Shown here piece after piece: positions 1,485 through 22,034 of a stretch of 64,000 nucleotides of DNA (its first letter is position 1; each line of letters begins with the position of its first letter). Made by a program: the position numbers and the translations under genes. Source of the stretch: Escherichia phage kvi; the sequence record MN850615.1. The stretch is one strand, 5' to 3'. A model generated the notes under the pieces. It was given only the letters and a program-made list of their open reading frames with translations. It made no database searches and was not told the origin of the DNA.

Positions 1485-1537
1485 TCCTCTATTAGTTGGG
1501 CGACTATTGCCGCCCGATTCACATCATTATACCAGAA

Positions 1538-1669
1538 TTATTTTGCTTCGACAACCTTGCGGATTGTGCGGTCTGATACATTATAGATTCGTGCCAGTTC
1601 GCCTTTAGTCAAACCGCGAGCGTATTGTTTACGGATGGTTTCTTTCTGGATGGCGGTCAGTTTAGTCAT
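1538..1669 (-). CDS. small helix-turn-helix protein (43 aa)
   Basis: MTKLTAIQKETIRKQYARGLTKGELARIYNVSDRTIRKVVEAK; GAGGTGATAT RBS; sits between rIIA and rIIB; below the 60-aa track cutoff. Confidence 0.45.
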   Translation of the reverse strand: MTKLTAIQKETIRKQYARGLTKGELARIYNVSDRTIRKVVEAK

Positions 1670-1680
1670 AATATCACCTC

Positions 1681-3789
1681 TTAAAATTTAACATTCTTAA
1701 CCAGTTTCATAAAGTCTTGTGCGCGTTTGTCATTATGCAGAATACGATACCAGTTATCGACAATATCATACAGTAACGGGCTATTCTCTTTAAACTTCGC
1801 ACAAACTGCTTTAATTCGTTCGTTTGCTACCGTGAATTTTTCATCACAAATCTTTTTAGTTTCTTCGTCCATAATCCAACGAGTACGAAGGAGTAACTTG
1901 GAAACCTCTTTATTATAATGACGACCGTACAGTCTGTCAATAAATTCTGGAACACAGCGTTCTAGTTCATCGTCATGAAACAACATAGTGATCACACCCA
2001 GATATTCGCCATACCCCAGATGATTGGTCTTAACCTTCTTAGCCAGACCAGCCAGCTTACCGCGAACAAATTCTAGCGCACATTCCAATTGTTCGTCAAC
2101 GAGATATTTTTGTGTCTCGTTTCGAGTAATAATATACTTTGTTACCCCGAAGTAGTCAAGCGCCGTGTGTAATGTATTTTCACTATGGATCGATTTACGA
2201 CTACGGCTTTCGAATGCATCACCTACGCGGAACATGTGCAAGCCTGATAACTCGCGAATCTCTGCCGCTTTCATGTGATGGCTGGTTTTATGCCAACTGT
2301 CACCAATCTTTTCCATGATATACACGTTAGGCAGCTTAGGAGTCGCTTCACGTTGTGTACGCTCGGTCTTCTCCGGTTTAACTGCTTTAGCACGCAGATC
2401 ATCGGCCTCAGAAACTTTAATCACGGTCATTTCAGAATCATCATAATACTGTTTGATGTACTCGAAAGTTTCCATATGTTTTTCGTTGCGCTGACGGAAC
2501 ACCAGTACCTTTTTATTGATGCCGTATTCCTGGACCATACCGTTAAGAGTCAGTGCGCGTAGTTTCGGTTTATCGGTATCATCAATAAGACACATAATAT
2601 CTTCTTTATGCATCCATACAAAATGCGTAATGTTGTATTGACTGCTAACGAAAGCAGGGCGCAATTTACTGATTGTGTGACGAGTACGATACAGAGTATA
2701 CACCTGACCTTCTACGTCATTAGGCGAATCTTTACCCGCATTCACAAACTTATTATAGATTGCTACCGGATCATCCCACTGCCCGATCTTACCCATCTTG
2801 CTAATAATATTGCGTTGAGTCGATGAATACTCGCTCATAAATTGCGCAAGTTTACGCTCTGTTTTAATGTTGGCGATCTTCTCTTTGACCTTTTCCAACA
2901 TCATTTCATTGATTTCTGCAATGCGTTTTTCGATGTTCGCTTTAGTCTCAATTGACAAGTGAACTTCTTCACGCGATGGCATCAGGTCCAGATCACCCAA
3001 CTCAAAATTAATGTAAATGGTCTGGTGCTGGCGGTTTACAGCTTCTAACCATGTTCCGCGAACATATTCATACGGGATCGGATACTGGATCTTACCCATG
3101 ATTGCATATACTACATAGGAATCGTTATCACGCCCATTACAAACATAATAATTATCAAAGCTAGGGAAATAATTAATTTCGATTGCATTGATATTAGGTT
3201 TGTGTTCCCCAAAATGACGCAGTACAAATTGCGCTTCTCGATGCCATGTCTGAATATCTTTTTCTTTCACCGGAATAGTGATTTTCAGACCATTGTCTTC
3301 ATAGGTCGGTTCGTCGAAAATCTGCACCATTTTCGGCATAGAGTTTTGCACAAATGCCGTAAAGCCATAAGCGCGACCATTGTAATAGTTTACGATTGTA
3401 AAGGTGTCAGTGTAGCTATAAGCAGATTTCGCACCTAAACCAAAAGACCCGATATAGTCATTAGTCTGGTCTTTTGTTGATTCAAAGTAAACCGTAAACA
3501 GTTGTTCTAATTCTTTCTTAGACGGAATACCAGTACCATAATCACGCACAGAGAAATACGGTTCGATTGCAGTCGGTAAATGAATATCAAACGGACGATC
3601 TAAGGTTCCGGCTTCTTTGTGAGTGTCGGTAGCATTGCACGAATACTCACGGACGCAAGCACGCTCACAATATTGATAAGTGTTCTTAGAAAGCACCATA
3701 AAAGCCTTGCTACTTGCTTTCAGTGAAAAATCAACCGCACCGCTCAGGTCACTGCCAAATACTTCTTCATTATCAATATGCATTTTCAT
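1681..3789 (-). CDS. rIIA: rIIA protein (GHKL/HATPase_c-like N-terminal domain)
   Basis: 702 aa; motifs VRDYGTGI and GSFGLGAKSAYSYTDTF typical of the rIIA ATPase fold; synteny with rIIB and gene 39; GAGGA RBS. Confidence 0.9.
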   Translation of the reverse strand: MKMHIDNEEVFGSDLSGAVDFSLKASSKAFMVLSKNTYQYCERACVREYSCNATDTHKEAGTLDRPFDIHLPTAIEPYFSVRDYGTGIPSKKELEQLFTVYFESTKDQTNDYIGSFGLGAKSAYSYTDTFTIVNYYNGRAYGFTAFVQNSMPKMVQIFDEPTYEDNGLKITIPVKEKDIQTWHREAQFVLRHFGEHKPNINAIEINYFPSFDNYYVCNGRDNDSYVVYAIMGKIQYPIPYEYVRGTWLEAVNRQHQTIYINFELGDLDLMPSREEVHLSIETKANIEKRIAEINEMMLEKVKEKIANIKTERKLAQFMSEYSSTQRNIISKMGKIGQWDDPVAIYNKFVNAGKDSPNDVEGQVYTLYRTRHTISKLRPAFVSSQYNITHFVWMHKEDIMCLIDDTDKPKLRALTLNGMVQEYGINKKVLVFRQRNEKHMETFEYIKQYYDDSEMTVIKVSEADDLRAKAVKPEKTERTQREATPKLPNVYIMEKIGDSWHKTSHHMKAAEIRELSGLHMFRVGDAFESRSRKSIHSENTLHTALDYFGVTKYIITRNETQKYLVDEQLECALEFVRGKLAGLAKKVKTNHLGYGEYLGVITMLFHDDELERCVPEFIDRLYGRHYNKEVSKLLLRTRWIMDEETKKICDEKFTVANERIKAVCAKFKENSPLLYDIVDNWYRILHNDKRAQDFMKLVKNVKF

Positions 3790-3803
3790 AATATAATCCT
3801 CAC

Positions 3804-4061
3804 TTAATTAAAATCTTCTTTGTCCATCTCTGCGTAGATTACATCCCACGCCCATAAATCAATAAACGCATTATATGTCACGGTGCAATCGTTGTCAATC
3901 ACTTCTTTCGCATATTTCTTGATGTTTTCGTAGGAAACTTGCGGGTCAATTTTGTGTTTACGAAGGTGCGCATATTCATATCTCAGACATTTCATAAACA
4001 GGTCCATCGATTTCTTTTCTCGATGACACTTGGCGATCATAAAATCAAAACTTCGACTCAT
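3804..4061 (-). CDS. hypothetical protein (85 aa; rIIA.1 position)
   Basis: minus-strand ORF immediately upstream of rIIA. Confidence 0.4.
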   Translation of the reverse strand: MSRSFDFMIAKCHREKKSMDLFMKCLRYEYAHLRKHKIDPQVSYENIKKYAKEVIDNDCTVTYNAFIDLWAWDVIYAEMDKEDFN

Positions 4062-4072
4062 TTTTCTACTCC

Positions 4073-4267
4073 TTATACATTTTCAATTACCCATTGCAGA
4101 TGGGCTTCTGCGTCAACCAGTTCAGCGCGGCTTTTCTCTAAGCACTTGCTGTATTCTTTACGTTCCCACTCGGCAATTTCGTTTTTCAGGACTTCTTCAT
4201 AGTAAGCAATTACGCCTTTCAGGTCTGAAACTTTACGGCTTGCCAATTCGATGTAATGGTTACGCAT
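4073..4267 (-). CDS. hypothetical protein (64 aa)
   Basis: minus-strand ORF, tight spacing to neighbours. Confidence 0.35.
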   Translation of the reverse strand: MRNHYIELASRKVSDLKGVIAYYEEVLKNEIAEWERKEYSKCLEKSRAELVDAEAHLQWVIENV

Positions 4268-4454
4268 TTTGATTCTCCTTTGTTACTAGATAACGAATTT
4301 GGTCTTGCATTGCGATCAGTTCCCAGCGTGCTACTTTCATCATGGAAACTGACTCTTTGAACATAATATTAGCTTTTTCCTTCTCCCCTGTCAAGTAGAT
4401 TTCTGCAATTTTTTCACAAAATTTTTGAGTTTCTTCATTCTTAAACGGTTTCAT
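4260..4454 (-). CDS. hypothetical protein (64 aa)
   Basis: ATG at 4454 with AAAAGG RBS downstream of a PeSL-type promoter; the track ORF begins at an upstream TTG. Confidence 0.4.
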   Translation of the reverse strand: MKPFKNEETQKFCEKIAEIYLTGEKEKANIMFKESVSMMKVARWELIAMQDQIRYLVTKENQNA

Positions 4455-4483
4455 ATAAGTCAACCTTTTGTTTTCGATGGGGA

Positions 4484-4512
4484 CATTATGATATATCCCC
4501 GATCCAGTGTCA
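4484..4512 (-). promoter_or_regulatory. sigma70-type early promoter (PeSL-like)
   Basis: minus strand TTGACA (4512-4507), 17-nt spacer, CATAAT (4489-4484); GGGGA/TCCCC inverted repeat spans the -10. Confidence 0.5.
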
Positions 4513-4520
4513 ACAGATTT

Positions 4521-4820
4521 TTAATCTTTTTTCAATGCATCCATTACTCGCTCTGCGATCAGTTCTCGTAAGCACTGATAACCATGATATTTGATGGCAA
4601 TGTCACGCAGATCATTAACCAGTTCCCGTACTTCATGGTCTTTCAGATCGTCTCTGTATTTCGATTTAACCGTGTCTTTAGGTGGATTGTGGATAACCTG
4701 AAAACCTTGTTCTGCAATCACTGCGGCTTCTCGCTGGCGTTCATGTTGTACTGTATTTTTGATCAGGTCTACTTCCATGAACTTTGTCATACTCATCATC
4801 ATGTTATTCTTTTTGCTCAT
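4521..4820 (-). CDS. hypothetical protein (99 aa)
   Basis: ATG at 4820 with GAGGA RBS; the track ORF extends further upstream to 4856. Confidence 0.45.
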   Translation of the reverse strand: MSKKNNMMMSMTKFMEVDLIKNTVQHERQREAAVIAEQGFQVIHNPPKDTVKSKYRDDLKDHEVRELVNDLRDIAIKYHGYQCLRELIAERVMDALKKD

Positions 4821-4854
4821 TATTAAATCCTCATAAACGAAAAGGGAGACTCCC

Positions 4855-4882
4855 ATTATAGAGAATCTCCCTTGTATGTCAA
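4855..4882 (-). promoter_or_regulatory. sigma70-type early promoter (PeSL-like)
   Basis: TTGACA (4882-4877), 16-nt spacer, TATAAT (4860-4855); flanked by GGGAG/CTCCC inverted repeat. Confidence 0.5.
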
Positions 4883-5442
4883 CTAAAATTTAAAGATGCA
4901 AACTCCCCGTGATGAATTTTTGCATATTCATCATATGCTCTAGCGGCTTCCTCCTGAGTAGCAAACGATCCTATGTATTTTCTGTATCCGTTTATCCTTA
5001 TTTGTGCTTGCCACGGTCTTTTGCTAGATCCTTTGCGATGAGTAACACCATTATATATGCTCGTGCACCCGTCAATTTTCTTTTTATTGTACATGTTTTG
5101 TTGTTGTGTTGCCTCCCGTAAATTTGGTGGATTGTTGTTTTCTGGATTCCCGTCTATGTGGTCTATTACCTTAACCTGTGTTCCATATTCAAGAAACCAG
5201 ACAATTCTATGTACAAGATATGTAGATGTTCTCTTTTTAACCTTATTGTAAACATCTATTGCCAAATGACCGTAATTTAACTTTTTTGTTTTTACTTTAT
5301 CACCGACTCGGTAGAAATATCCCTCTGGTAGACCATTAAAAGACGGACTATTTGTTTTGTGATATAGAACACCTTCCGTGTGTTCAAATCTGCGTTTTAA
5401 TTCCTCTTGAATTTCAGTATTCCAAAATTTCGCACTTTTCAT
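4879..5442 (-). CDS. free-standing HNH homing endonuclease with C-terminal AP2-type DNA-binding domain
   Basis: HNH motif (…HRIVW…IDHIDGNPENNNPPNLR…) and AP2-like C-terminus (…RPWQAQIRINGYRKYIGSFATQEEAARAYDEY…); start codon overlaps the gp39 stop. Confidence 0.8.
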   Translation of the reverse strand: MKSAKFWNTEIQEELKRRFEHTEGVLYHKTNSPSFNGLPEGYFYRVGDKVKTKKLNYGHLAIDVYNKVKKRTSTYLVHRIVWFLEYGTQVKVIDHIDGNPENNNPPNLREATQQQNMYNKKKIDGCTSIYNGVTHRKGSSKRPWQAQIRINGYRKYIGSFATQEEAARAYDEYAKIHHGEFASLNFS

Positions 5443-5443
5443 A

Positions 5444-7267
5444 TTATGACGCCATCCATGCCTTCCTCATGTCTGAATCTTCACTATAGAGCAAATCGAA
5501 TAGCTCTTTATAGTTTTCCGGTAACGTGATGATCTCCATGACAGGATCGTTGATCACGCGATGATAGTCTGATTCTGTGAGCGATGCTAAACCTTTGATA
5601 TATCGAATGTTGTAACCTTTGATATTATCTCGGTCGGTCTCAAAATCTTCTAGGTCATAATACCATCGAACATCATCACCTTTCTTTGGTTCCGCAATGA
5701 TAATAGGTGTTTTGATAAACCGGATTCGTCCATCTTCGAACAATTCAGGCCAACGAGCAAAGAAAGAGATCAGACTAGGTTTAATAGACCCGATCCCGTC
5801 AGTATCAGCGTCTGTCATAATCGCAATATTTTTGTATTGCATAACTTCCAATGCATCAACACCAAATTGCAAGCCAGTGATCGCCATGATGTTAAAAATT
5901 TCGGCGTTCTTAACGATCTTTGCCTCCGGTTGTTCCCACGTTGTAAGAGTTTTGCCTCGCAACGGGAAACCTCCATGTAAATCTGGATCACGTACAGAGA
6001 CCAGATAGTTGATCGCGGAATCACCTTCCGTCAAAAACAGGGTAGTTTCTGCGTCAGTTCCAATAAGGTTAGCTTTAACGTGTTTTGCTACCTTAGCCCG
6101 TTTCGCTGCTTTTGCTACCTTAGTCGCTGCCGCTTTATCTGCTGCCTCTTTGCGTGCCAGGACTACAGCAATAATAGGCATGATAATGTTTTCTTTCTTC
6201 GCAATGACTTTAGCCAGCTTTTTAAAATCAAGATCAATATGACGCTTGATATCACCAGTTGGATTAGTCAATCGTTCTTTTGTCTGTGAATCAAAACGAA
6301 GGTTAGGCAATTCACGAACAATAAGAATACAGGTCAATCCAGACTTAACCGCAGCTTTAGTAACATCAACCTTATGTTCTTTCTTGATTCGTTTTACAAT
6401 CTCTTCACAAAGATCATCTGTCACGTAGTCTACGTGTGTTCCCCCGTTTTTGGTAAACAGACCATTAGCAAAGGATACTGATTTAAAACCTTCTCCCTCG
6501 ACCGCAGGAACTAGGGCAAGTGAAAAGTTTTTATCTTCAATGACAAACGGATCATCATTGTATAGTTTAGCATAATCCTTGAACTTACTAACAATACGTT
6601 TACCATTAAACTTAAACGTGATCTTAGGAAAGATTACGCTCAATGATTGCAGACGATCATGAACAATATCTAAAACAGAGTTGTCCATCATATAACCTTC
6701 GAAGTGGTCGAAGTCTGGGCAAAATGTAACCTTTGTTCCCTTCAATTTTGATGGTTTCGATGACCATGTGATATTTTCAGCACCGTTTGTACATTGAACG
6801 GTCATTTCTGTTTCTCCGTCACAGGTCACACCAGTAAACCAATCGCTAAAGAAATTTGACAACGACGACCCCACACCGTTCATCCCTTGCGTTAATCGAT
6901 TGGTATCATCAAAGTTAGACCCTGCTTTTGTTCGTGTCCATGCGGCTACAGGTTGCGGAATCTGCGTGCCCTCTGGAGTAGTAACCATATGTTGAGGAAT
7001 ACCGCGACCATTGTCTGTTACCGTAACAATATTGTTTTGGATATCGACGCTAATCACATTGGCAAATTCAAAATTAGTGCGAATCGCCTCGTCTACAGAG
7101 TTGTCGATGATCTCATCAATGATTTTAACCAGTCCTGGAACATATGAAATTTTTGTCCATTTACCGAACAGGAAACGTTGGTGTTCTTCGTAAGTTGTTG
7201 ATCCTATATACATTCCTGCACGCTTAAGGACATGTTCACGATCAGATAAAATGCGAAACTCACTCAT
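5444..7267 (-). CDS. 39: DNA topoisomerase II large subunit, GyrB-like ATPase (T4 gp39 with the gp60 portion fused in one ORF)
   Basis: 607 aa; GHKL ATPase motifs (DNGRGIP, GMNGVGSS) and TOPRIM region (…TEGDSA…, …MTDADTDG…); one continuous ORF, unlike the split T4 39/60 arrangement. Confidence 0.93.
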   Translation of the reverse strand: MSEFRILSDREHVLKRAGMYIGSTTYEEHQRFLFGKWTKISYVPGLVKIIDEIIDNSVDEAIRTNFEFANVISVDIQNNIVTVTDNGRGIPQHMVTTPEGTQIPQPVAAWTRTKAGSNFDDTNRLTQGMNGVGSSLSNFFSDWFTGVTCDGETEMTVQCTNGAENITWSSKPSKLKGTKVTFCPDFDHFEGYMMDNSVLDIVHDRLQSLSVIFPKITFKFNGKRIVSKFKDYAKLYNDDPFVIEDKNFSLALVPAVEGEGFKSVSFANGLFTKNGGTHVDYVTDDLCEEIVKRIKKEHKVDVTKAAVKSGLTCILIVRELPNLRFDSQTKERLTNPTGDIKRHIDLDFKKLAKVIAKKENIIMPIIAVVLARKEAADKAAATKVAKAAKRAKVAKHVKANLIGTDAETTLFLTEGDSAINYLVSVRDPDLHGGFPLRGKTLTTWEQPEAKIVKNAEIFNIMAITGLQFGVDALEVMQYKNIAIMTDADTDGIGSIKPSLISFFARWPELFEDGRIRFIKTPIIIAEPKKGDDVRWYYDLEDFETDRDNIKGYNIRYIKGLASLTESDYHRVINDPVMEIITLPENYKELFDLLYSEDSDMRKAWMAS

Positions 7268-7370
7268 TATTAAACCTCTTCATAACATAACCATAACTTA
7301 CTGCAACCGCCACAAAGACGGCTGCAACAATCATATTAAAAATTGAGTGATTGTCAAGTATATGACTCAT
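7260..7370 (-). CDS. small hydrophobic peptide (36 aa)
   Basis: ATGA-type overlap with upstream stop and 8-nt overlap with the gp39 start suggest translational coupling; below track cutoff. Confidence 0.25.
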   Translation of the reverse strand: MSHILDNHSIFNMIVAAVFVAVAVSYGYVMKRFNNE

Positions 7371-7540
7371 GACACGCGCACATTTTTATCGTAATACCCG
7401 CCATTAATCCCGCGCGGGGCAGTTAATCCCTGTTTACATTCTTTACCGCATTCAGGGCATTCTGCCTTTTCACGCTCGGAAATTTTGCGGATTTTCTGAA
7501 ATTGACCGTGTTCTTCACAAGAATAATCGTATAATGGCAT
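7367..7540 (-). CDS. zinc-ribbon protein, FmdB-like (57 aa)
   Basis: MPLYDYSCEEHGQF…CPECGK…; ATG at 7540 with AGGGGA RBS; the track ORF is over-extended upstream. Confidence 0.55.
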   Translation of the reverse strand: MPLYDYSCEEHGQFQKIRKISEREKAECPECGKECKQGLTAPRGINGGYYDKNVRVS

Positions 7541-7541
7541 A

Positions 7542-8210
7542 TTATCCCCTTTGTTTCTTAACTGAATTTGGATCTGGATTTTCTGGTAGGTCTTCCAGAC
7601 CCATAGCATAACGTTGTGCATAGATTAGCATAAGAATATCGCGAGCGCAATCATGAATTGCATCATGTGCGATAAAACCATCTAGCGTACCCATTGGTAA
7701 CGGACACTCACACATCCCGCGATGCATCAATGTACGCTCAATGGCGGTGCGAACATCTCGGATGTTCCAGAATCGCACAGGTTCAAGATTGAACGTCTCT
7801 CGTGTATTGTGTGCATCGCGGATCATATCAACTAGTAACGGAATATCAAACGCATTACCGCGTGACCACAATACGGATTTAACCGGATCTACCCCTACGG
7901 CTTCACAGAATGCGTTAAAACGCGCTAAACCTTCTTTAGTTGATACTTCCGTACCATTTGTGATTAATTGCTTTCTCATGCCTTCTGAGGCGGTATTCTT
8001 CCACCATTCAACCACACCATGATCAAACACCCTTACACCTTTCTGGGAAGGAATATCAAATTTTACCAGAAAGGAATTGTCAACCAGTTCTTTAAATGTA
8101 GGTGGGTTGTGCGGATCTTCTTTAAATCCGATTGCCGCCATATTGATAACCGCCCCATCAGGCGGATAACCTAAACTTTCAAAGTCAATCATTAAATCCA
8201 CTGGAAGCAT
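7542..8210 (-). CDS. dexA: exonuclease A, DEDD/DnaQ-like 3'-5' exonuclease
   Basis: Exo I motif LMIDFESLG near the N-terminus; ATG at 8210 with GGAGGA RBS; T4-syntenic between 39 and dda. Confidence 0.7.
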   Translation of the reverse strand: MLPVDLMIDFESLGYPPDGAVINMAAIGFKEDPHNPPTFKELVDNSFLVKFDIPSQKGVRVFDHGVVEWWKNTASEGMRKQLITNGTEVSTKEGLARFNAFCEAVGVDPVKSVLWSRGNAFDIPLLVDMIRDAHNTRETFNLEPVRFWNIRDVRTAIERTLMHRGMCECPLPMGTLDGFIAHDAIHDCARDILMLIYAQRYAMGLEDLPENPDPNSVKKQRG

Positions 8211-11906: not shown

Positions 11907-12431
11907 TTAGTAGCCTCGTTCTTGACGGGCGAAGTTTTCAGCATTTTTCAGATAGTACAGAATAAAGAGTTCTTGAGCGTCAATACCCAGCGGGATCATC
12001 TTTGACAGAATGAAGTGGATAGCGTCCACAAATTCAAATTTCACTTCAAGCTGATCTTCCGGTGACAGTTCAGAGAATTTACGCGCTCGCGCTTCCCCGT
12101 GGTTCTTTTTCCACATTTTCCAGATTGCACTTGCATCTTTACCATTGGACATTCCACCCAGCGATGTGTAAAGCTCTCGTGTTTCGTCTGCGATAGCGTC
12201 ATCCATCCGCTGCATCCAATCCAGCATTTCACCGCAAGTCTCTAGCTTAGTTGGATTTGGGACCCAATCAAATTTTTCGGATAGTGCAACCTGCAAACCA
12301 GTTTGCATTTCGAGCATCACCTGAAACGGATCTTTACCTTCTGCAATCGCGTGATGATATGCGGCGATAGCCGCGTTAATATCTTTTTCGTTAACCAGAC
12401 CAGCACAAGAATTAAATTCTGACATATTCAC
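11907..12431 (-). CDS. MazG-like nucleoside triphosphate pyrophosphohydrolase (T4 gp56 dCTPase position)
   Basis: 174 aa; acidic EExxE-like motifs (…ETRELYTSLG…, …EDQLEVKFEFVD…); sits just downstream of primase gene 61 as T4 gene 56 does. Confidence 0.5.
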   Translation of the reverse strand: MNMSEFNSCAGLVNEKDINAAIAAYHHAIAEGKDPFQVMLEMQTGLQVALSEKFDWVPNPTKLETCGEMLDWMQRMDDAIADETRELYTSLGGMSNGKDASAIWKMWKKNHGEARARKFSELSPEDQLEVKFEFVDAIHFILSKMIPLGIDAQELFILYYLKNAENFARQERGY

Positions 12432-12439
12432 CTCATTAA

Positions 12440-13468
12440 TTAAAATTTACAATATTTCATAAACCGCATTTTAGCCATCAGACCTTGTACGGTGTTCTCT
12501 TTGATATATTCCATGATCTGGTCGCGTGTAGCGCCCTCGTCCTGAATCATGGCGTTAACGTCTTTAGAATGCCACGGGCAACGGTCCCACAAAACAATCT
12601 TTTCCCCTGCATTGATAAACTTTTCCAGTCGGTGCATTGTATCGGCAGACCGTGGTTCCGCATCAAGTACAAACACTCGCTGATCAGGGAAAGGAATTTC
12701 ATCTAATCCCAAAGTACCGCCAGTAATTGCACACCCGTTATCAATAAACAATGAATCGATCGGACCTTCTAAGAAATACACTGGTTTACTCGGATCGGCG
12801 CGTTCAAGACCATAGACCTTACTCGCTAACTCATGAGTTTTAATCGTCATATATTTGGTCTTTCCGTAATCCTTTCTCAATGCTCGCCCCTGAATGGATT
12901 CTATCTTGTTCTCGCGGTTAAAGATAGGAATCACTAAACGCGGTTCAGGTTGTGGATTCTTGAAAGTATCAGCCTTAATGTGATTTGCTACCTTTTGCCA
13001 TTCTCTCGTGAAATACAGAAGATCCCATTTATCGTGAGGAATACAGCGATCACTGACATACTTTATTATAGGATGATTAGCCGGAAGAGTATCTAATCTC
13101 TCGCAGAAAGGCAATGTTTGCACTTTCTTAATCTCCGGCTTTTCTACCTTTTTCAGTGGCTTGAACGTGGTGTTCTTGTGGTCGCCTTGTTCCTTCCGTC
13201 GTTCTATAAGCCATTCCCTGAATAGGTCCGGCTTATACTGTTTGAGAAATTCACCTAACGGCTGATTGTAGTTACAGTTGAAACAGCCGCAACGCAAACT
13301 ATCCTTATAGGTATAGATACGGAATCGCGCTTGAGTATGATTTTTCTTTGAGTCACCGCAGATCGGACAACTACAGACCAGCGTAAATGAGCTAGTATGC
13401 AACCGTTTAAAATTTCGTTCGCCGTATATGGCTTTTTCCGCTATTTCATAATCTGCGTAGTAAATCAT
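12440..13468 (-). CDS. 61: DNA primase
   Basis: 342 aa (same as T4 gp61); N-terminal zinc ribbon (CPICGDS…CGCFNC) and TOPRIM-like core; synteny with gene 41. Confidence 0.9.
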   Translation of the reverse strand: MIYYADYEIAEKAIYGERNFKRLHTSSFTLVCSCPICGDSKKNHTQARFRIYTYKDSLRCGCFNCNYNQPLGEFLKQYKPDLFREWLIERRKEQGDHKNTTFKPLKKVEKPEIKKVQTLPFCERLDTLPANHPIIKYVSDRCIPHDKWDLLYFTREWQKVANHIKADTFKNPQPEPRLVIPIFNRENKIESIQGRALRKDYGKTKYMTIKTHELASKVYGLERADPSKPVYFLEGPIDSLFIDNGCAITGGTLGLDEIPFPDQRVFVLDAEPRSADTMHRLEKFINAGEKIVLWDRCPWHSKDVNAMIQDEGATRDQIMEYIKENTVQGLMAKMRFMKYCKF

Positions 13469-18192: not shown

Positions 18193-18221
18193 ATTATACA
18201 CACTTTATCTTAAATGTCAAA
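18193..18221 (-). promoter_or_regulatory. sigma70-type promoter inside the 3' end of gene 43
   Basis: TTGACA (18221-18216), 17-nt spacer, TATAAT (18198-18193); followed by a GGCGGGT…ACCCGCC hairpin. Confidence 0.45.
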
Positions 18222-19686
18222 CAGGTCAGTCAGAGAAGCAACTTTCTCATATTGCAGCTTTGCAGCCGTGGTAATGTTCTCCAGTGGTTTGACGAAAGTC
18301 TTATTAAACAACAAAGGCCAGTCTAACCACTTTAACACCTCTGATTCAATTTCTGGAGGAATACGAGTACCGGACAACCAACCAAAACAGATTTCTCCAA
18401 ACGGATTTCGATCTTTCAGCGGTACAATCATAACCTTCTCGCCCTCACGAATTGGATCTAGTCCGAATTTTCGAGCATTACGATTATAACACAATACACT
18501 CTTAACCGCATACGGACAACCCTTAATCGGATACCCGTTTGAATCGCTGTATTTCTGTAGGTTGTTTGCAGATGATACCGCAGCAACCTCAAGATAATCA
18601 AGTTTTCTAAATTCTTGCTCAAAAATACCGTAGTATTCCTGCAATGACTCTTCACCTTCCTGCAACATACGGCGAATACATTCTTTCAGTGATTTCTGAC
18701 ATGCTTTAGGGGTGGAGCTACGTTGCGTTTCCAAGCCCATGATTTTTAGCTTAGGTTCAGCAAAGCGCGTTCCTTCCATATCCCAAACATTAAGAGCATA
18801 ACGCTTTTTGCCAGTCCAGAATCCACCGATACCCGCAGATTTCAACGGAGGACCAGCAATTGCCTCACGGTCCATAAACATCAAGTGCTCATAGTTGTTC
18901 ATGTACTCGCATAACTCGCGATATCCCTTGTCGATAATAGGTTCCATTCGATGTTTACCGAAATTATCAAGGAAGTCAACAAGTTTTTCGGTATCGTCGA
19001 AACGGTCTTCCCCGCCAACCTTATCAACAACATTGTTAACCAGCACATAAACGGAGTCAGTATCACAATAACGAACATATGCAAAATCGGTTGTTCCGCA
19101 AAGCTCGTTTAAGTATTCGTTAATCTTACGCTCAATCCACTGAATTGCAAGCTGACCAAACAAGGTGATCGCACTAGCGTTACGGAGATCATAAAAACGG
19201 AATTTAGGATTCCCCAACGCACCATAAAGGGAGTTGATCAAAACTTTTCGAGAAAGCTGGTTTGTATTGCACAAGATCGACTCGTCTTTACATTCTTCCA
19301 GCAATTTCTCTAAGGCATCTTTACTTAATTCAGAAAGCATCGATTTAAACGCTTCATCAAAGTCGTGACGTACTTCAACGCTATAGCTAATGGTTCCCCC
19401 ATAAACATGATTTTCATCGTGTAGAATCGCTTTACAGAGTTCAGCATTGCGATCACATGCCAACATCATGTTTTTGTACTGCTTACGCTGATCGAATACC
19501 TTTTTAATCTCAATCGGTACGATACCGTGAATATCTTTTCTATACATCCATCCGTTAGGAGAGCAAGAATACTCATCACTCGGACGTGGTGCAGTTTTAT
19601 TGATATACTCGTGCATCGGTGCAGCATCAAAAGATCCGGCGATTGTTTCCGGCGAAATGTTAACCTGACGGATGATTGATGGATAC
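18210..19686 (-). CDS. 43: DNA polymerase gp43, exon 2 (palm/thumb, C-terminal ~490 aa)
   Basis: frame opens directly after a stop with YPSIIRQVNISPETI…HEYINKTAPRPSDEYSCSPNGWMY…; contains KILINSLYGALGN and YCDTDS polymerase motifs; no start codon of its own. Confidence 0.9.
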
Positions 19687-19826
19687 CATTATGTTCAGCG
19701 CGGTTCGCTACTCCCGCGCCCGTTCTCTTACGAACTGCTACATGTCACCATGTAGATCAGACTATATCACATTCTCATAGAGAATCCTGCCATTTCGAAT
19801 CGCTTGATTCTACTCTACTCGGTTCG

Positions 19827-20651
19827 TTACCCTTTCGATAGTCGTTGAACAACTGCATCTTTAAGCTCATTTTGATCAAACGGTGTTCTCTTACAGTACC
19901 CGCTATAATTCTTAGCAAAAGGTTTCTTCTTACCAAAGATCTCTTTTCCTGAATTATGTGATTCAACAAGAAAATTCACCATTTCATCAAATGTGAAACT
20001 TGCAAATTTAGCATAAGTTTCATTACGTTTTGACATTATTTTACTCATAACTTCCGGTCGTTTAGACGCTGAATTTTCGCGTTTCTCGCCAGTATTAAAT
20101 GATACCAACTCACCGGAAACATATCTAGGATCATCACAACTAACTCTAAACCGATTTCCTTCCTTATCCTTAACGATAACAGTATTCTTTAGCTTTTCTG
20201 CCATAGAATCAAGACCTTTTCGTATAGTGTCCTCATCAGCCCCGAAATATTTCTTTCCGCTCATATCGGTTCTGGCTTTTCCGGTCTTGTTTTCGGATAT
20301 TTTCAGTCTAACTTCCTCTCGCTTGGCTGGGTTATTGTCTCCAGCGAATGCATCTTTGGTTAACGCCTTCACTTTATCGTCATAAGATCCTCTAGAGATG
20401 AAAGCATATGCTCTCTTGCATTCACCGTTATTGAATATTAAGCACAATAACCGATGCGCCTCGACGTGGTCTTCAAACTTAAGCCTAACAAGATTCCATT
20501 TATCTAACCGATATTCAGGGAACATTGACTTCGGGCATATATGATGCACCTCGGAATATTCTTCACCCTGATACGGATTAGACACCAGTTTAATGTAGTC
20601 GTTTAATGCTTCCTCGTTATGTATTTCGTACTTTCTTAAAATGTCTTTCAT
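19827..20651 (-). CDS. intron-encoded HNH homing endonuclease
   Basis: 274 aa from ATG at 20651 (GGAGG RBS); HNH motif …EVHHICPKS…WNLVRLKFEDHVEAH…. Confidence 0.75.
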   Translation of the reverse strand: MKDILRKYEIHNEEALNDYIKLVSNPYQGEEYSEVHHICPKSMFPEYRLDKWNLVRLKFEDHVEAHRLLCLIFNNGECKRAYAFISRGSYDDKVKALTKDAFAGDNNPAKREEVRLKISENKTGKARTDMSGKKYFGADEDTIRKGLDSMAEKLKNTVIVKDKEGNRFRVSCDDPRYVSGELVSFNTGEKRENSASKRPEVMSKIMSKRNETYAKFASFTFDEMVNFLVESHNSGKEIFGKKKPFAKNYSGYCKRTPFDQNELKDAVVQRLSKG

Positions 20652-20676
20652 CTCGCGCCTCCAATGTATATCAATA

Positions 20677-20684
20677 TTTATATA
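20677..20684 (-). promoter_or_regulatory. T4 late-promoter motif TATAAATA upstream of the intron endonuclease ORF
   Basis: exact TATAAATA on minus strand ~25 nt upstream of the endonuclease ATG. Confidence 0.4.
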
Positions 20685-20800
20685 CATTATAAGACACGTT
20701 AGCTCAAAATGCAACTGCTGCTGATTGTCTCCTTAGAGATTTCCCAGCAATTAAGCAGGTTATTCGATCACTGTCACCAGTGAAAGCCCCATATCAGTTT

Positions 20801-22002
20801 AGGGAAGTAAGGTCAAAGCTCATCATCCAACGGTAAGCATTCGGCACAGGTTCTTTTACGAATGCGCCTGGATACGTCTGCTTAGGCTGTATCTTATTTT
20901 CCGGTACTACTTTACCCTCAGCTTTCAGAGATCCGAAGATAATAGCATCCCATACTTTCATCGGGTTATAAACATGGTTAAATTTAATCTTTGCATAGAA
21001 ACATAGACTATACACCAGATCGATAAATCCACGCTTTTTATCAATCGCCAGCACACGATCAACGTCGCCGATGTTATAATCGATGTAAAGTTGATGGTTG
21101 TCATCACGCAATTTCTTTAACGGACCATCATAATCAACCTTACCGATTCCTGTCTCATATTCAGCAACATAATCTAACGCATATGTTGGTTGAGTCGTAA
21201 AGCTAAATTTCTTGTATAGGTCAATATAATCAAGGCTTTCGATCCCCATGATCGTAAATGCTTCACGCTCGTTGCCAAAATCATCCTGTGAGATTCGGGA
21301 TTTAATCTTACCGCACGGGCTTAGACGGTTAGCGGTTCTACTTCCGAACTTATTACTGATACGTTTAATGATATATGGAATATCGAATGTTTCTGTGTTC
21401 CAGCCAGTGAAACCAACGGGTCGGTTTTCCTCAAAGAATCGGATGTATTCTAACAGCAATTCATCTTCTGTGTCATAGACGTTATAAACAACGCGCTCTA
21501 CAATATCAGGTCGAAGAATAGACTTGCTAGATTCCCAGATTTCACCGTTTTTTCCTTTCAAATCAAATACAAAGAAACGATCATGTACGGAATCATAATG
21601 CGTAATTGCATCGATAGGATATTTCGCTTCTTCTGGTTTAGGAAATTCTGGGGCAGTGACCTCGATATCAACCCATGCTACACGGATTTTATTTCGGTCA
21701 TATCGAATCTCTCCTTTATACGTATCAGACAGATAGGAGATGATAAAATCATCCATCCCTAGCGCCTCTTGCCCCATTTCTCCCATCTTTTTACGCCATT
21801 TGTTGGCCTCGTTCATAGAGGGGAATTTTTTAGCAATGCAAGGCTTGCCATAGATATCTTTATAATTCGTAACCATACCAGGCGCGGCATGATGAAATAA
21901 AGTTGGCGTATATTCAACGTAACGCTCTTGTTCTTGTCCAGCATCATCAATATAACGCTCGTAGATCTTATCACCTACTCGCTCACATGACAGAAAATAC
22001 AT
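20801..22002 (-). CDS. 43: DNA polymerase gp43, exon 1 (N-terminal and 3'-5' exonuclease domains, ends in motif A)
   Basis: start MYFLSCERVGDKIYERYID… at 22002 (AAGGAG RBS), matching the T4 gp43 N-terminus as recalled; exo I motif VDIEV; ORF stops one codon after …SFDLTSL. Confidence 0.9.
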
Positions 22003-22034
22003 AATATAAACTCCTTCACTTACGAAAGACACTC

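Follow-up and report, generated by a model that had tools for sequence, protein, structure and literature searches.

A free-standing HNH-AP2 homing endonuclease gene of a known class most probably lies behind the stop codon of the topoisomerase II large-subunit gene, ahead of its terminator, in the Krischvirus genome analysed here, a reading to which we give a probability of roughly 85%. The window, a 64,000-nt stretch of Escherichia phage kvi DNA (sequence record MN850615.1), was recognized as a Krischvirus (RB49-like) coliphage genome by comparison with database genomes, and its features around the gene are collected in Table 1. The junction reads ...GCG TCA TAA T ATG AAA..., with a single base (5443) separating the TAA of the topoisomerase gene from the ATG of the endonuclease gene. 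A preliminary description of this DNA had proposed a topoisomerase encoded by a single 607-aa ORF, with a free-standing HNH-AP2 gene starting 1 nt past its stop codon. The first part is confirmed by the ORF list and by continuous alignments to T4 gp39 and gp60, and the second is borne out by the sequence together with the predicted structure.

The gene is ordinary and was already known, its class having been described since 2004-2010, and it carries little weight as a discovery; its value is that of a clean textbook example and not of a new kind of element. The window and its endonuclease-free relatives PTE-Eco09 and FL37 form a natural before-and-after pair, whose local difference is one clean 588-nt cassette. 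This pair should be handy for measuring homing, co-conversion length and target immunity in the HNH-AP2 class, for which our literature search found no biochemical characterization in phages. Such endonuclease genes set the borders of mosaic blocks in the genomes of phages used in therapy.

Table 1. Features of the topoisomerase-endonuclease region, in positions of the window
Feature	Positions	Strand	Basis
Downstream neighbour, a conserved hypothetical gene (RB49p005 homologue), outside the cassette	4521..4856	(-)	PHROG 15065, E 3e-67
Resident terminator hairpin interleaved with the sigma-70-type promoter of the next gene; right-hand homology arm	4842..4882	(-)	Scan, alignment
Putative free-standing HNH-AP2 homing endonuclease gene, 187 aa	4879..5442	(-)	ORF, Pfam, PHROG 99 (E 1.3e-48), model
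Putative mobile cassette, 588 nt replacing 30 nt of the empty site	4883..5470	(-)	Alignment of 8 carriers and 5 non-carriers
Predicted AP2-type DNA-binding domain, aa 127-186	4885..5064	(-)	Pfam AP2 (E 1.5e-5), phmmer, model
HNH_3 nuclease core, aa 75-118, motif VIDHIDGNPENNNPPNLREATQQQN	5089..5220	(-)	Pfam HNH_3 (E 6.3e-14)
Unsplit topoisomerase II large-subunit gene (equivalent of T4 39+60), 607 aa	5444..7267	(-)	ORF list, PHROG, Pfam
Recoded last 9 topoisomerase codons (8 sense + TAA), travelling with the endonuclease gene	5444..5470	(-)	Alignment, megablast
Donor-type (apparently co-converted) tract, 3' part of the topoisomerase gene	5471..5972	(-)	Allele comparison with FL37 and LF73P4
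Promoter-like site and terminator-like hairpin upstream of the topoisomerase gene	7298..7357	(-)	Promoter/terminator scan

Domain structure of the endonuclease

The 187-aa protein falls into PHROG 99, annotated as 'HNH endonuclease', and its match to HNH_3 (PF13392) scores 51.8 bits, above the curated threshold of 24.8. A phmmer comparison with I-HmuI (E 5.6e-5) covers aa 42-121 and aligns the active-site region. Residues D94, H95, N103, N107, R109 and N119, which are invariant among 23 homologues, are all kept in the protein and line up with the I-HmuI motif DHKDGNKDNN...NLR...N.

The C-terminal region matches AP2 (PF00847) with 25.7 bits, under the curated cut-off of 33.3, and precomputed Pfam assignments give AP2, graded 'weak', for a 99%-identical cluster and many relatives. 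Solved plant AP2/ERF domains were also matched by phmmer, namely WRI1 (1e-5), ERF096 (3.5e-5) and AtERF1 (2.8e-4). In an AlphaFold model of the endonuclease (pLDDT 94.9), this region is predicted to form strands at 133-135, 144-150 and 153-160, followed by a helix at 163-181. The C-terminal 61 residues of the model superpose on AtERF1 (1gcc) with an rmsd of 1.6 Å and a TM-score of 0.78 by target length, and the AP2 region superposes on TEM1 (7et4, 7et5) at 1.3-1.4 Å over 60-61 columns; identity to the plant structures is 36-43% over 60-61 columns. For the whole chain, the best PDB match of the model is I-HmuI (1u3e, Foldseek E 2.9e-4). The TM-score of this match is only 0.40-0.43, which we attribute to a different placement of the domains relative to each other.

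Taken together, the sequence and the model show an HNH_3 nuclease core of the I-HmuI kind, intact and linked to a DNA-binding domain of the AP2 type; endonuclease activity, cut site and strand specificity are putative. The gene also deviates in GC content and codon usage, a check that the preliminary description had suggested. Its GC content is 36.0% (gene mean 40.7%, sd 2.0), its GC3 is 29.4% (37.6%, sd 4.6), and its codon-adaptation value is the lowest among the 42 ORFs of at least 150 aa. The window holds no second copy of the endonuclease, and no match to Rfam families was found within it at gathering thresholds.

The unsplit topoisomerase gene

Residues 2-606 of the topoisomerase match PHROG 543 ('DNA topoisomerase II large subunit', E 7e-252), and the Pfam domains HATPase_c, DNA_gyraseB, Toprim and TOPRIM_C are present. 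T4 gp39 aligns with residues 2-474 and T4 gp60 with residues 480-607, and since they align on both sides of the T4 split point, the ORF is unbroken across it. Neither a split nor a coding gap, translational bypass or insert-derived extension was seen in the window's topoisomerase. The gene measures 1824 nt, as it does in RB49, Phi1 and JSE, and its protein end is of the same length as in genomes that lack the endonuclease gene (non-carriers). The Phi1 record names the unsplit gene '60+39', and the gene is colinear throughout in all 13 aligned Krischvirus sequences, carriers and non-carriers together. Judged from these alignments, Krischvirus genomes normally have the '60+39' gene unsplit, and this state is therefore uninformative about the cassette.

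Cassette boundaries and the recoded gene end

The 30 nt displaced by the cassette consist, in endonuclease-free genomes, of 27 nt of the topoisomerase gene end plus CAC. The occupied site exceeds the empty site by 558 nt, in line with the 3301 and 2743 nt that the matches span. The columns that tell carriers from non-carriers all fall within 5470-5441, and no carrier-specific site lies outside this block in the 13 aligned sequences. The other Krischvirus records cover 82% of a 3.3-kb query as two pieces, and their empty site is uniform. PTE-Eco09 is 99.3% identical to the window over 25 kb, the sole gap being the endonuclease gene.

On the topoisomerase side, the cassette includes a recoded gene end. 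This tail encodes MRKAWMAS and a stop, where empty-site alleles encode (Q/R)RKIWMQS and a stop. It differs from each empty-site allele at 11-12 of 27 nt and between carriers at 0 of 27, and even the conserved R and K are written with other codons (AGG AAG in carriers, CGC AAA at the empty site). The tail is present in 8/8 carriers and 0/49 non-carriers: with 5444-5563 as a megablast query, the match crosses the tail in the eight carriers and ends at query base 28/29 in every one of the 49 non-carriers. The insertion and the 27-nt recoded tail alter the presumed target in every carrier. Searches for relatives of the tail gave little. Exact 28-nt and 27-nt patterns had no match in IMG/VR or JGI metagenome contigs, a degenerate pattern back-translated from DMRKAWMA had none in IMG/VR, and the last 55 residues, searched as protein, gave a single match, to an unrelated fragment of a MobA-type split topoisomerase.

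We tentatively entertain the possibility, at somewhat less than even odds, that the tail is an active part of the element, a cassette-borne and cleavage-resistant replacement of the enzyme's own target. If so, its function would correspond to that of the homologous-replacement and bypass module in the MobA element, which is unrelated. In that case, no fewer than three endonuclease lineages, unrelated to one another, would have independently targeted the topoisomerase II large-subunit gene of T4-like phages: MobA in mid-gene, an Endonuclease VII-type enzyme (MIZ4, G5211) at its 5' end and HNH-AP2 at its 3' end, all of them accompanied by a diverged copy of the adjoining gene segment. Alternatively, the tail may be a passive passenger, because a 27-nt divergent block beside the insert could hardly be separated from it by homologous recombination. 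In the case of MobA, comparable polymorphisms by themselves did not stop nicking (bioRxiv 10.1101/2022.08.31.505936). A paralogue behind the primase gene in G2494 leaves the primase end unaltered and adjoins a 71%-identical downstream gene, so a recoded tail is no rule of the family. A family-wide pattern of insertion after a stop codon with recoding of the upstream gene end was rejected on this ground, and other paralogues start 6 and 48 nt behind the gene that precedes them.

Transcription and translation of the cassette

The cassette ends at a resident promoter-terminator element. The promoter (4882..4855; TTGACA, 16 nt, TATAAT; 12/12 match) serves the next gene, the terminator lies at 4873..4842, and both are likewise annotated in GEC-3S and G5211. 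The whole element is common to carriers and non-carriers and is identical in 12 of the 13 aligned sequences, LF73P4 being one base off; the RB49p005 homologue beyond it is also found in carriers and non-carriers alike. The TGA stop of the endonuclease gene runs into the TTGACA -35 box, overlapping its first bases. Ahead of the topoisomerase gene, a promoter-like site at 7357..7330 (11/12 match) is followed by a terminator-like hairpin at 7330..7298.

A scan of the gene strand found no consensus promoter at the topoisomerase-endonuclease junction or within the endonuclease gene, and a promoter of its own was accordingly rejected. The only other minus-strand promoter-like match before the terminator at 4873 is a weak 9/12 site (5590..5561) inside the topoisomerase gene, and no T4-type late-promoter TATAAATA box was seen by eye in the last 120 nt of that gene. 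No obvious ribosome-binding site stands at the usual distance from the endonuclease start. We also considered a regulatory hairpin at the stop-start junction, and dropped it: the minimum free energy of the RNA fold around the start codon was no better than that of shuffled sequence (z 0.36), which therefore gives no support for specific translational control. The gene appears to have neither its own promoter nor a well-placed ribosome-binding site; we propose that the topoisomerase message probably carries it as its tail, and that ribosomes restarting at UAAUAUG probably translate it at a low level.

Distribution and traces of recent transfer

The endonuclease gene is present in 8 of about 57 Krischvirus records and missing from the remainder, including the near-identical backbones PTE-Eco09 and FL37. 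With tblastn, the protein was found at 95% identity or more in these eight records only, the next relatives lying below 60%. So limited a distribution indicates that spread has been limited or offset by loss. Among the eight carriers, diversity is 0.43% in the endonuclease gene, 0 in the tail and 1.2-3.3% in the flanks, so that the gene is about 3-8 times less diverse than the flanking DNA of the same genomes.

The alleles around the cassette appear to record how the window acquired it. From 7700 to 5972 the window equals the endonuclease-free FL37 save at two sites (6117 and 6113), at 5873, 5756, 5642 and 5483 it has the allele of the carrier LF73P4, and from 4882 downward it again equals FL37 and PTE-Eco09, the recipient type being back within 44 nt downstream. 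This comparison, of four informative sites against one near-isogenic genome, suggests that about 400-500 nt on the topoisomerase side are of donor type, with donor sequence at 5441-5873 and a crossover somewhere in 5972-5873. The endonuclease gene itself is of the pEJ01/W115/FL15 type and its flank is LF73P4-like, and the exact donor is absent from the database. By these allele patterns, the window is shown as an endonuclease-free-type backbone carrying the cassette and what appears to be a donor-type tract on its topoisomerase side. The low diversity and this non-carrier-type backbone with its donor tract therefore argue for recent transfer across backbones.

Presence or absence at one site, low diversity, the recoded tail and the donor tract are the marks of intronless homing, as far as sequence comparison can tell. 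During co-infection of a carrier and a non-carrier, the enzyme would nick or cut the DNA of the non-carrier, at the 3' end of the topoisomerase gene or close to it. Phage recombination would then mend the break with the carrier genome as template, so that the cassette is copied in together with more or less of its flank. The insertion, perhaps with the recoded tail, would destroy the recognition site and spare carriers from cutting themselves. The preliminary description had called the junction a likely recombination hot spot, and the carrier/non-carrier alignment, the donor tract, the diversity and the association of the tail do identify the site as a recombination boundary. Its paralogues, 46-51% identical, are likewise free-standing and lie between other genes in T4-like genomes (behind the primase gene, between rpbA and gene 45, and beside gene 2), as is typical of a homing endonuclease family.

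It is unlikely, in our view, that the gene is instead a decaying or inactive remnant of a homing endonuclease, immobile and kept by linkage only. Its restriction to a minority of genomes and the want of a ribosome-binding site at the usual distance would suit such a remnant, as would a private change in the window's copy, M123I, which lies between the HNH_3 and AP2 domains. However, all eight copies are full length and free of stop codons, the family-invariant residues are all kept, and both the reduced diversity and the donor tract on a non-carrier-type backbone speak for recent movement.

Less likely still is a domesticated protein that serves the phage and is not primarily selfish, for example by regulating the adjacent promoter-terminator through its AP2 domain or by serving as a weapon against competing relatives, which it would degrade. 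The AP2 domain would be a sequence-specific DNA binder, as predicted from sequence and model, and the stop codon of the gene extends into the -35 box of a perfect promoter; there would also be a competitive benefit in cutting a co-infecting relative, which is compatible with homing. Against such a role, the gene is dispensable, 49 related records keeping the same promoter and terminator without it; the nuclease residues are intact, the distribution is patchy and independent of the backbone, and the paralogues occupy unrelated sites.

Comparison with known systems

The closest known systems are the HNH-AP2 genes of T4-related phages (RB49ORF040c and those of RB43, RB16 and JSE), which share the HNH_3 and AP2 combination, the size range and the stand-alone position between conserved T4-like genes. 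Nothing essential sets the window's gene apart from them, other members being 46-51% identical and located at other sites. EpJSE_00005 of JSE is the same gene, with 98.4% protein identity and the same position, and GenBank records of several Krischvirus genomes annotate the gene as an HNH endonuclease or a homing endonuclease. AP2-HNH elements were reported in RB49 and RB43 (PMC1524935), and the class was tallied for JSE and RB49 in 2010, with two HNH-AP2 genes in JSE (PMC2993671, Table 5); the two places found by tblastn in JSE agree with this count. Our literature search found no published account of the boundaries, recoded tail or co-conversion tract of the topoisomerase-linked copy.

By both sequence and fold, the nearest solved nuclease is I-HmuI (1u3e), an HNH nicking enzyme of the Bacillus phage SPO1, with which the protein shares the DH...N...N motif. 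I-HmuI is encoded inside an intron and binds DNA through a C-terminal helix-turn-helix region, whereas the Krischvirus protein is free-standing and has a predicted AP2 domain. In its C-terminal 60 residues, the latter resembles the plant AP2/ERF domains of AtERF1 (1gcc), TEM1 (7et4) and WRI1 (7wq5), with a shared fold and 36-43% identity, but those proteins act as transcription factors and have no nuclease part. A derivation of the plant AP2 domain from such endonucleases is the idea of Magnani et al. 2004, as cited in PMC1524935.

SegG (near gene 32) and MobE (in the nrd genes) are likewise stand-alone endonuclease genes between or beside conserved genes. Free-standing T4 endonucleases cleave the allele of a related phage that lacks the endonuclease gene, which is then copied in along with markers from its flanks (PMC2993671, section 13), and by analogy the asymmetric donor tract in the window is the footprint that intronless homing would be expected to leave. 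SegG and MobE differ in family (GIY-YIG for Seg, mob-type HNH for Mob), and their activity was demonstrated by experiment, where that of the Krischvirus gene is deduced.

The T4 MobA/gene 60 cassette shares the target gene, brings an insert-borne replacement of the displaced piece and spreads by intronless homing. MobA proteins of 269-279 aa are encoded at topoisomerase residues 466-491, splitting the gene, and the insertion adds new protein ends and a 50-nt bypass (bioRxiv 10.1101/2022.08.31.505936). The preliminary description had taken the window's arrangement for a different insertion state of the same kind of cassette, and this view is not sustained: the HNH family, site and size are all different, and the MobA family lacks AP2, splits its target into genes 39 and 60 and needs the bypass. 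That the two belong to one mobile element family, placed at different points of the gene, is the least probable explanation of all: both are HNH-superfamily endonuclease genes tied to the topoisomerase II large-subunit gene of T4-related phages, and both bring an insert-derived substitute for a short topoisomerase stretch (the HomR region, the 27-nt tail), but tblastn against the T4 39-mobA-60 region gave no detectable similarity (best E 0.31, a weak match outside mobA), the T4 MobA fragment matches PF01844, PF14279 and PF13395, not PF13392, and has no AP2 domain, the 187-aa protein is encoded behind the stop codon of a whole gene and not inside it, and a true MobA-type split, in phage contig L025, looks quite different. 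The insertion site in the window lies about 130 codons downstream of the MobA site, past the stop codon. The likeness to MobA is functional only, in that a short piece of the topoisomerase gene is replaced in each case by a copy that the cassette itself brings.

The endonuclease gene follows an intact topoisomerase gene

The window derives from a member of Krischvirus, the RB49-like T4-related coliphages (megablast), and the genes around the topoisomerase gene are rIIB, rIIA, 39.2, dexA, dda and srd. The topoisomerase ORF matches PHROG 543 over residues 2-606 (E 7e-252) and contains the Pfam domains HATPase_c, DNA_gyraseB, Toprim and TOPRIM_C. As T4 gp39 and gp60 align along this one ORF, to residues 2-474 (57% identity) and 480-607 (48% identity) respectively, the gene is uninterrupted across the T4 split point, as the preliminary description had it. 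That description also took the unsplit gene as the mark of an insertion state, a view that could not be upheld. The gene is colinear in 13 of 13 Krischvirus sequences aligned and is annotated as 1824 nt in all fetched records but G5211 (annotated there from an internal start), so an unsplit topoisomerase is ordinary in the genus and no special trait of the window. The Phi1 record calls the gene '60+39'.

The junction reads GCG TCA TAA T ATG AAA, confirming that the endonuclease gene starts one base past the topoisomerase stop codon. Its product carries an HNH_3 domain (Pfam E 6.3e-14, over the cut-off) and an AP2 match under the cut-off (E 1.5e-5; 25.7 bits against 33.3). In phmmer searches of solved structures, residues 42-121 match the homing endonuclease I-HmuI (5.6e-5), and residues 127-186 match the plant AP2/ERF domains of WRI1 (1e-5), ERF096 (3.5e-5) and AtERF1 (2.8e-4). 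An AlphaFold model with 23 homologues as input has a mean pLDDT of 94.9; its top PDB matches are again I-HmuI (E 2.9e-4) and AP2 domains, the latter superposing at 1.3-1.6 A over 60-61 columns. Residues D94, H95, N103, N107, R109 and N119 are invariant in the family alignment and are all kept in the window's copy. The proposed HNH endonuclease with an AP2-type tail is thus supported by Pfam, phmmer and the structural model. At codon 123 (window 5074), in the linker between the two domains, the window has a private Ile where 7 of 7 other carrier sequences have Met.

Features discussed in the text (window coordinates unless a genome is named)
Feature	Position	Strand	Basis or remark
Topoisomerase II large-subunit ORF, 607 aa	5444..7267	-	ORF listing, PHROG, Pfam
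Endonuclease ORF, 187 aa	4879..5442	-	ORF listing
Mobile cassette	4883..5470	-	588 nt in place of 30 nt
Perfect sigma-70-type promoter	4882..4855	-	promoter scan
Terminator hairpin, interleaved with that promoter	4873..4842	-	scan
Promoter and hairpin upstream of topoisomerase gene	7357..7298	-	scan
Weak promoter match (9 of 12) inside topoisomerase gene	5590..5561	-	only other minus-strand match
Endonuclease VII-domain ORF	MIZ4 locus 6716..7549; G5211 locus 4375..5103		Pfam PF02945, E ~6e-16
286-aa ORF between DNA polymerase halves	19827..20687	-	MIZ4 annotation: HNH endonuclease

A sharply bounded cassette with a recoded tail

By tblastn, the 187-aa protein is found at 95% identity or more in eight records only: JSE (two accessions), W115, FL15, pEJ01, G37-3, G5211 and LF73P4. 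The next matches lie below 60% identity. Over the first 25 kb, the record closest to the window is PTE-Eco09 (99.3% identity, 98% coverage, in two pieces), and FL37 is likewise 99.3% identical; both are without the endonuclease gene. In the remaining Krischvirus records, a 3.3-kb query aligns as two segments that make up 82% of its length, and the region is 558 nt shorter.

Eight carriers, the window included, were aligned with five non-carriers. Downstream, homology returns exactly at the TTGACA hexamer (window 4882), which the endonuclease TGA stop overlaps. Upstream, the topoisomerase gene has two versions of its final 27 nt: this tail is ATGAGGAAGGCATGGATGGCGTCATAA in carriers, whereas non-carriers have C(A/G)(A/C/G)CGCAAAATTTGGATGCAATCATAA followed by CAC. 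The two versions differ at 11-12 of 27 positions, with no difference among carriers, and every column splitting carriers from non-carriers falls within 5470-5441. A megablast query of 5444-5563 reads through the tail in exactly the eight carrier records and ends at query base 28 or 29 in 49 of 49 others. Together, these limits define the mobile unit. The C-terminus changes from (Q/R)RKIWMQS to MRKAWMAS in carriers, which retain the R, K, W and M of the T4 end (DLRKEWMSQ), R and K by different codons.

Expression of the endonuclease

No consensus promoter was found on the gene strand at the junction or within the endonuclease gene. Since the cassette lies between the topoisomerase stop codon and the topoisomerase terminator, the endonuclease should be transcribed as the 3' tail of the topoisomerase message. 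The same downstream promoter and terminator are annotated in the GEC-3S and G5211 records. The nearest purine-rich stretch, GAGGAAGG, ends about 18 nt upstream of the ATG, so translation would most likely proceed by restart after termination at UAAUAUG. RNA folding around the endonuclease start was no better than in shuffled sequences (z 0.36).

Signs of recent movement and a probable homing mechanism

The endonuclease gene varies little among the eight carriers (nucleotide diversity 0.43%) and the tail not at all, against 1.2-3.3% in the flanking blocks, and no copy has an internal stop codon. The gene is mildly foreign in composition: its GC content is 36.0% (mean over genes 40.7%, sd 2.0), its GC3 is 29.4% (mean 37.6%, sd 4.6), and it ranks last of 42 long ORFs in codon adaptation.

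In a three-way comparison, the window from 7700 down to 5972 equals the non-carrier FL37 but for two sites, and many sites set it apart from most other genomes, the carrier LF73P4 among them. It then has the LF73P4 allele at 5873, 5756, 5642 and 5483. Past the cassette, from 4882 downward, it equals FL37 and PTE-Eco09 again, and is unlike the other carriers already at 4838. On these four informative sites and this one comparison, the window can be read as a non-carrier-type backbone that acquired the cassette with flanking donor sequence, about 400-500 nt on the topoisomerase side and less than 44 nt on the other. The exact donor is not among the database genomes. Window 5637, in the topoisomerase gene and inside the putative conversion tract, has a base private to the window against 10 other tabulated genomes.

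Such a footprint is expected of intronless homing, described for T4-type phages (PMC2993671), and a free-standing homing endonuclease is the most likely mechanism. The suggestion of a homing endonuclease at a recombination hot spot is borne out by presence or absence at one site, sharp limits and the conversion footprint. In a mixed infection, the enzyme would introduce a nick or a cut into the allele lacking the endonuclease gene, at the 3' end of topoisomerase or close to it, and recombinational repair off the carrier genome would copy in the cassette with some flank. Carriers would be spared by the alteration of the site through insertion, and possibly by the recoded tail too. Alternatively, the tail may simply have been carried along: recombination could hardly remove 27 nt of divergent sequence that adjoin the insert, and for MobA comparable polymorphisms by themselves failed to stop nicking (bioRxiv 10.1101/2022.08.31.505936). 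The domains, the presence-absence polymorphism, the cassette limits and the footprints are direct observations; for the homing mechanism itself, we infer cleavage, cut position and carrier immunity.

Other endonuclease genes and mosaic borders

In some Krischvirus genomes, the topoisomerase gene is directly preceded by an ORF with an Endonuclease VII domain (277 aa, or 242 by annotation), so that in G5211 endonuclease genes flank topoisomerase on both sides. The equivalent site in the window (~7268..7366) is empty. Across the 5'-most ~750 nt of the topoisomerase gene (window 6518..7267), MIZ4, G5211 and G37-3 diverge from the window by 14-28% in 150-nt bins, compared with 1-3% for RB49, and divergence in the former three falls sharply to about 2-4% below 6518. 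In MIZ4 and G5211 this block occurs together with the Endonuclease VII-type gene; in G37-3 it occurs alone, so that either the gene was lost or only a conversion tract was received.

The window's DNA polymerase gene is apparently in two parts (about 18211..22003 in coordinates of the colinear MIZ4 locus) around a 286-aa ORF whose codon adaptation is the window's second-lowest and which has no Pfam match at E 0.01. Rfam gave no group I intron there at the gathering score; a putative intron has been mentioned for JSE gene 43 (PMC2993671).

In G2494, a paralogous HNH-AP2 gene follows the primase gene (1495..2058 of that locus), and tblastn matches of ~49% identity are found correspondingly far from the topoisomerase gene in several genomes, KFS-EC and AV108 among them. 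The equivalent site in the window (~12431..12440) is empty. The G2494 primase end is unchanged, while the dCTPase/MazG-like gene downstream has only 71% identity (369/519) to the window's; here, too, mosaic blocks meet abruptly at an endonuclease gene.

Comparison with known elements

The preliminary description regarded the arrangement as another insertion state of a mobA-type cassette. This kinship is ruled out: T4 MobA has no detectable similarity to the endonuclease and belongs to another Pfam HNH family, and its cassette differs in length, site and consequences. A split topoisomerase gene occurs at 2289..5180 in a T4-like Logan contig (SRR29026054_4852, 152.8 kb). The order there is a 511-aa N-terminal ORF, a 289-aa ORF and two short pieces of 43 and 59 aa, of which the 59-aa one is 65% identical to the topoisomerase C-terminus. 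This resembles a MobA-type insertion, perhaps with a bypass, and is a layout quite unlike the window's intact gene and adjoining endonuclease.

The element belongs to a class already known. AP2-HNH elements were described in RB49 and RB43 (PMC1524935), and HNH-AP2 genes were tallied as two in JSE and one in RB49 (PMC2993671, Table 5). Exactly two places in JSE match the protein by tblastn, one being EpJSE_00005, at the same site as the window's gene; the W115 and FL15 records label this gene 'HNH endonuclease' and 'homing endonuclease', respectively. In a large protein collection, one cluster is 99% identical and all further matches are at 51% or less; these paralogues sit at other intergenic sites in T4-like genomes. 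We found no published account of this copy's boundaries, tail or conversion tract, a gap in detail and not in kind. The main value of the locus is as a clean natural before-and-after pair for experiments on the HNH-AP2 class.
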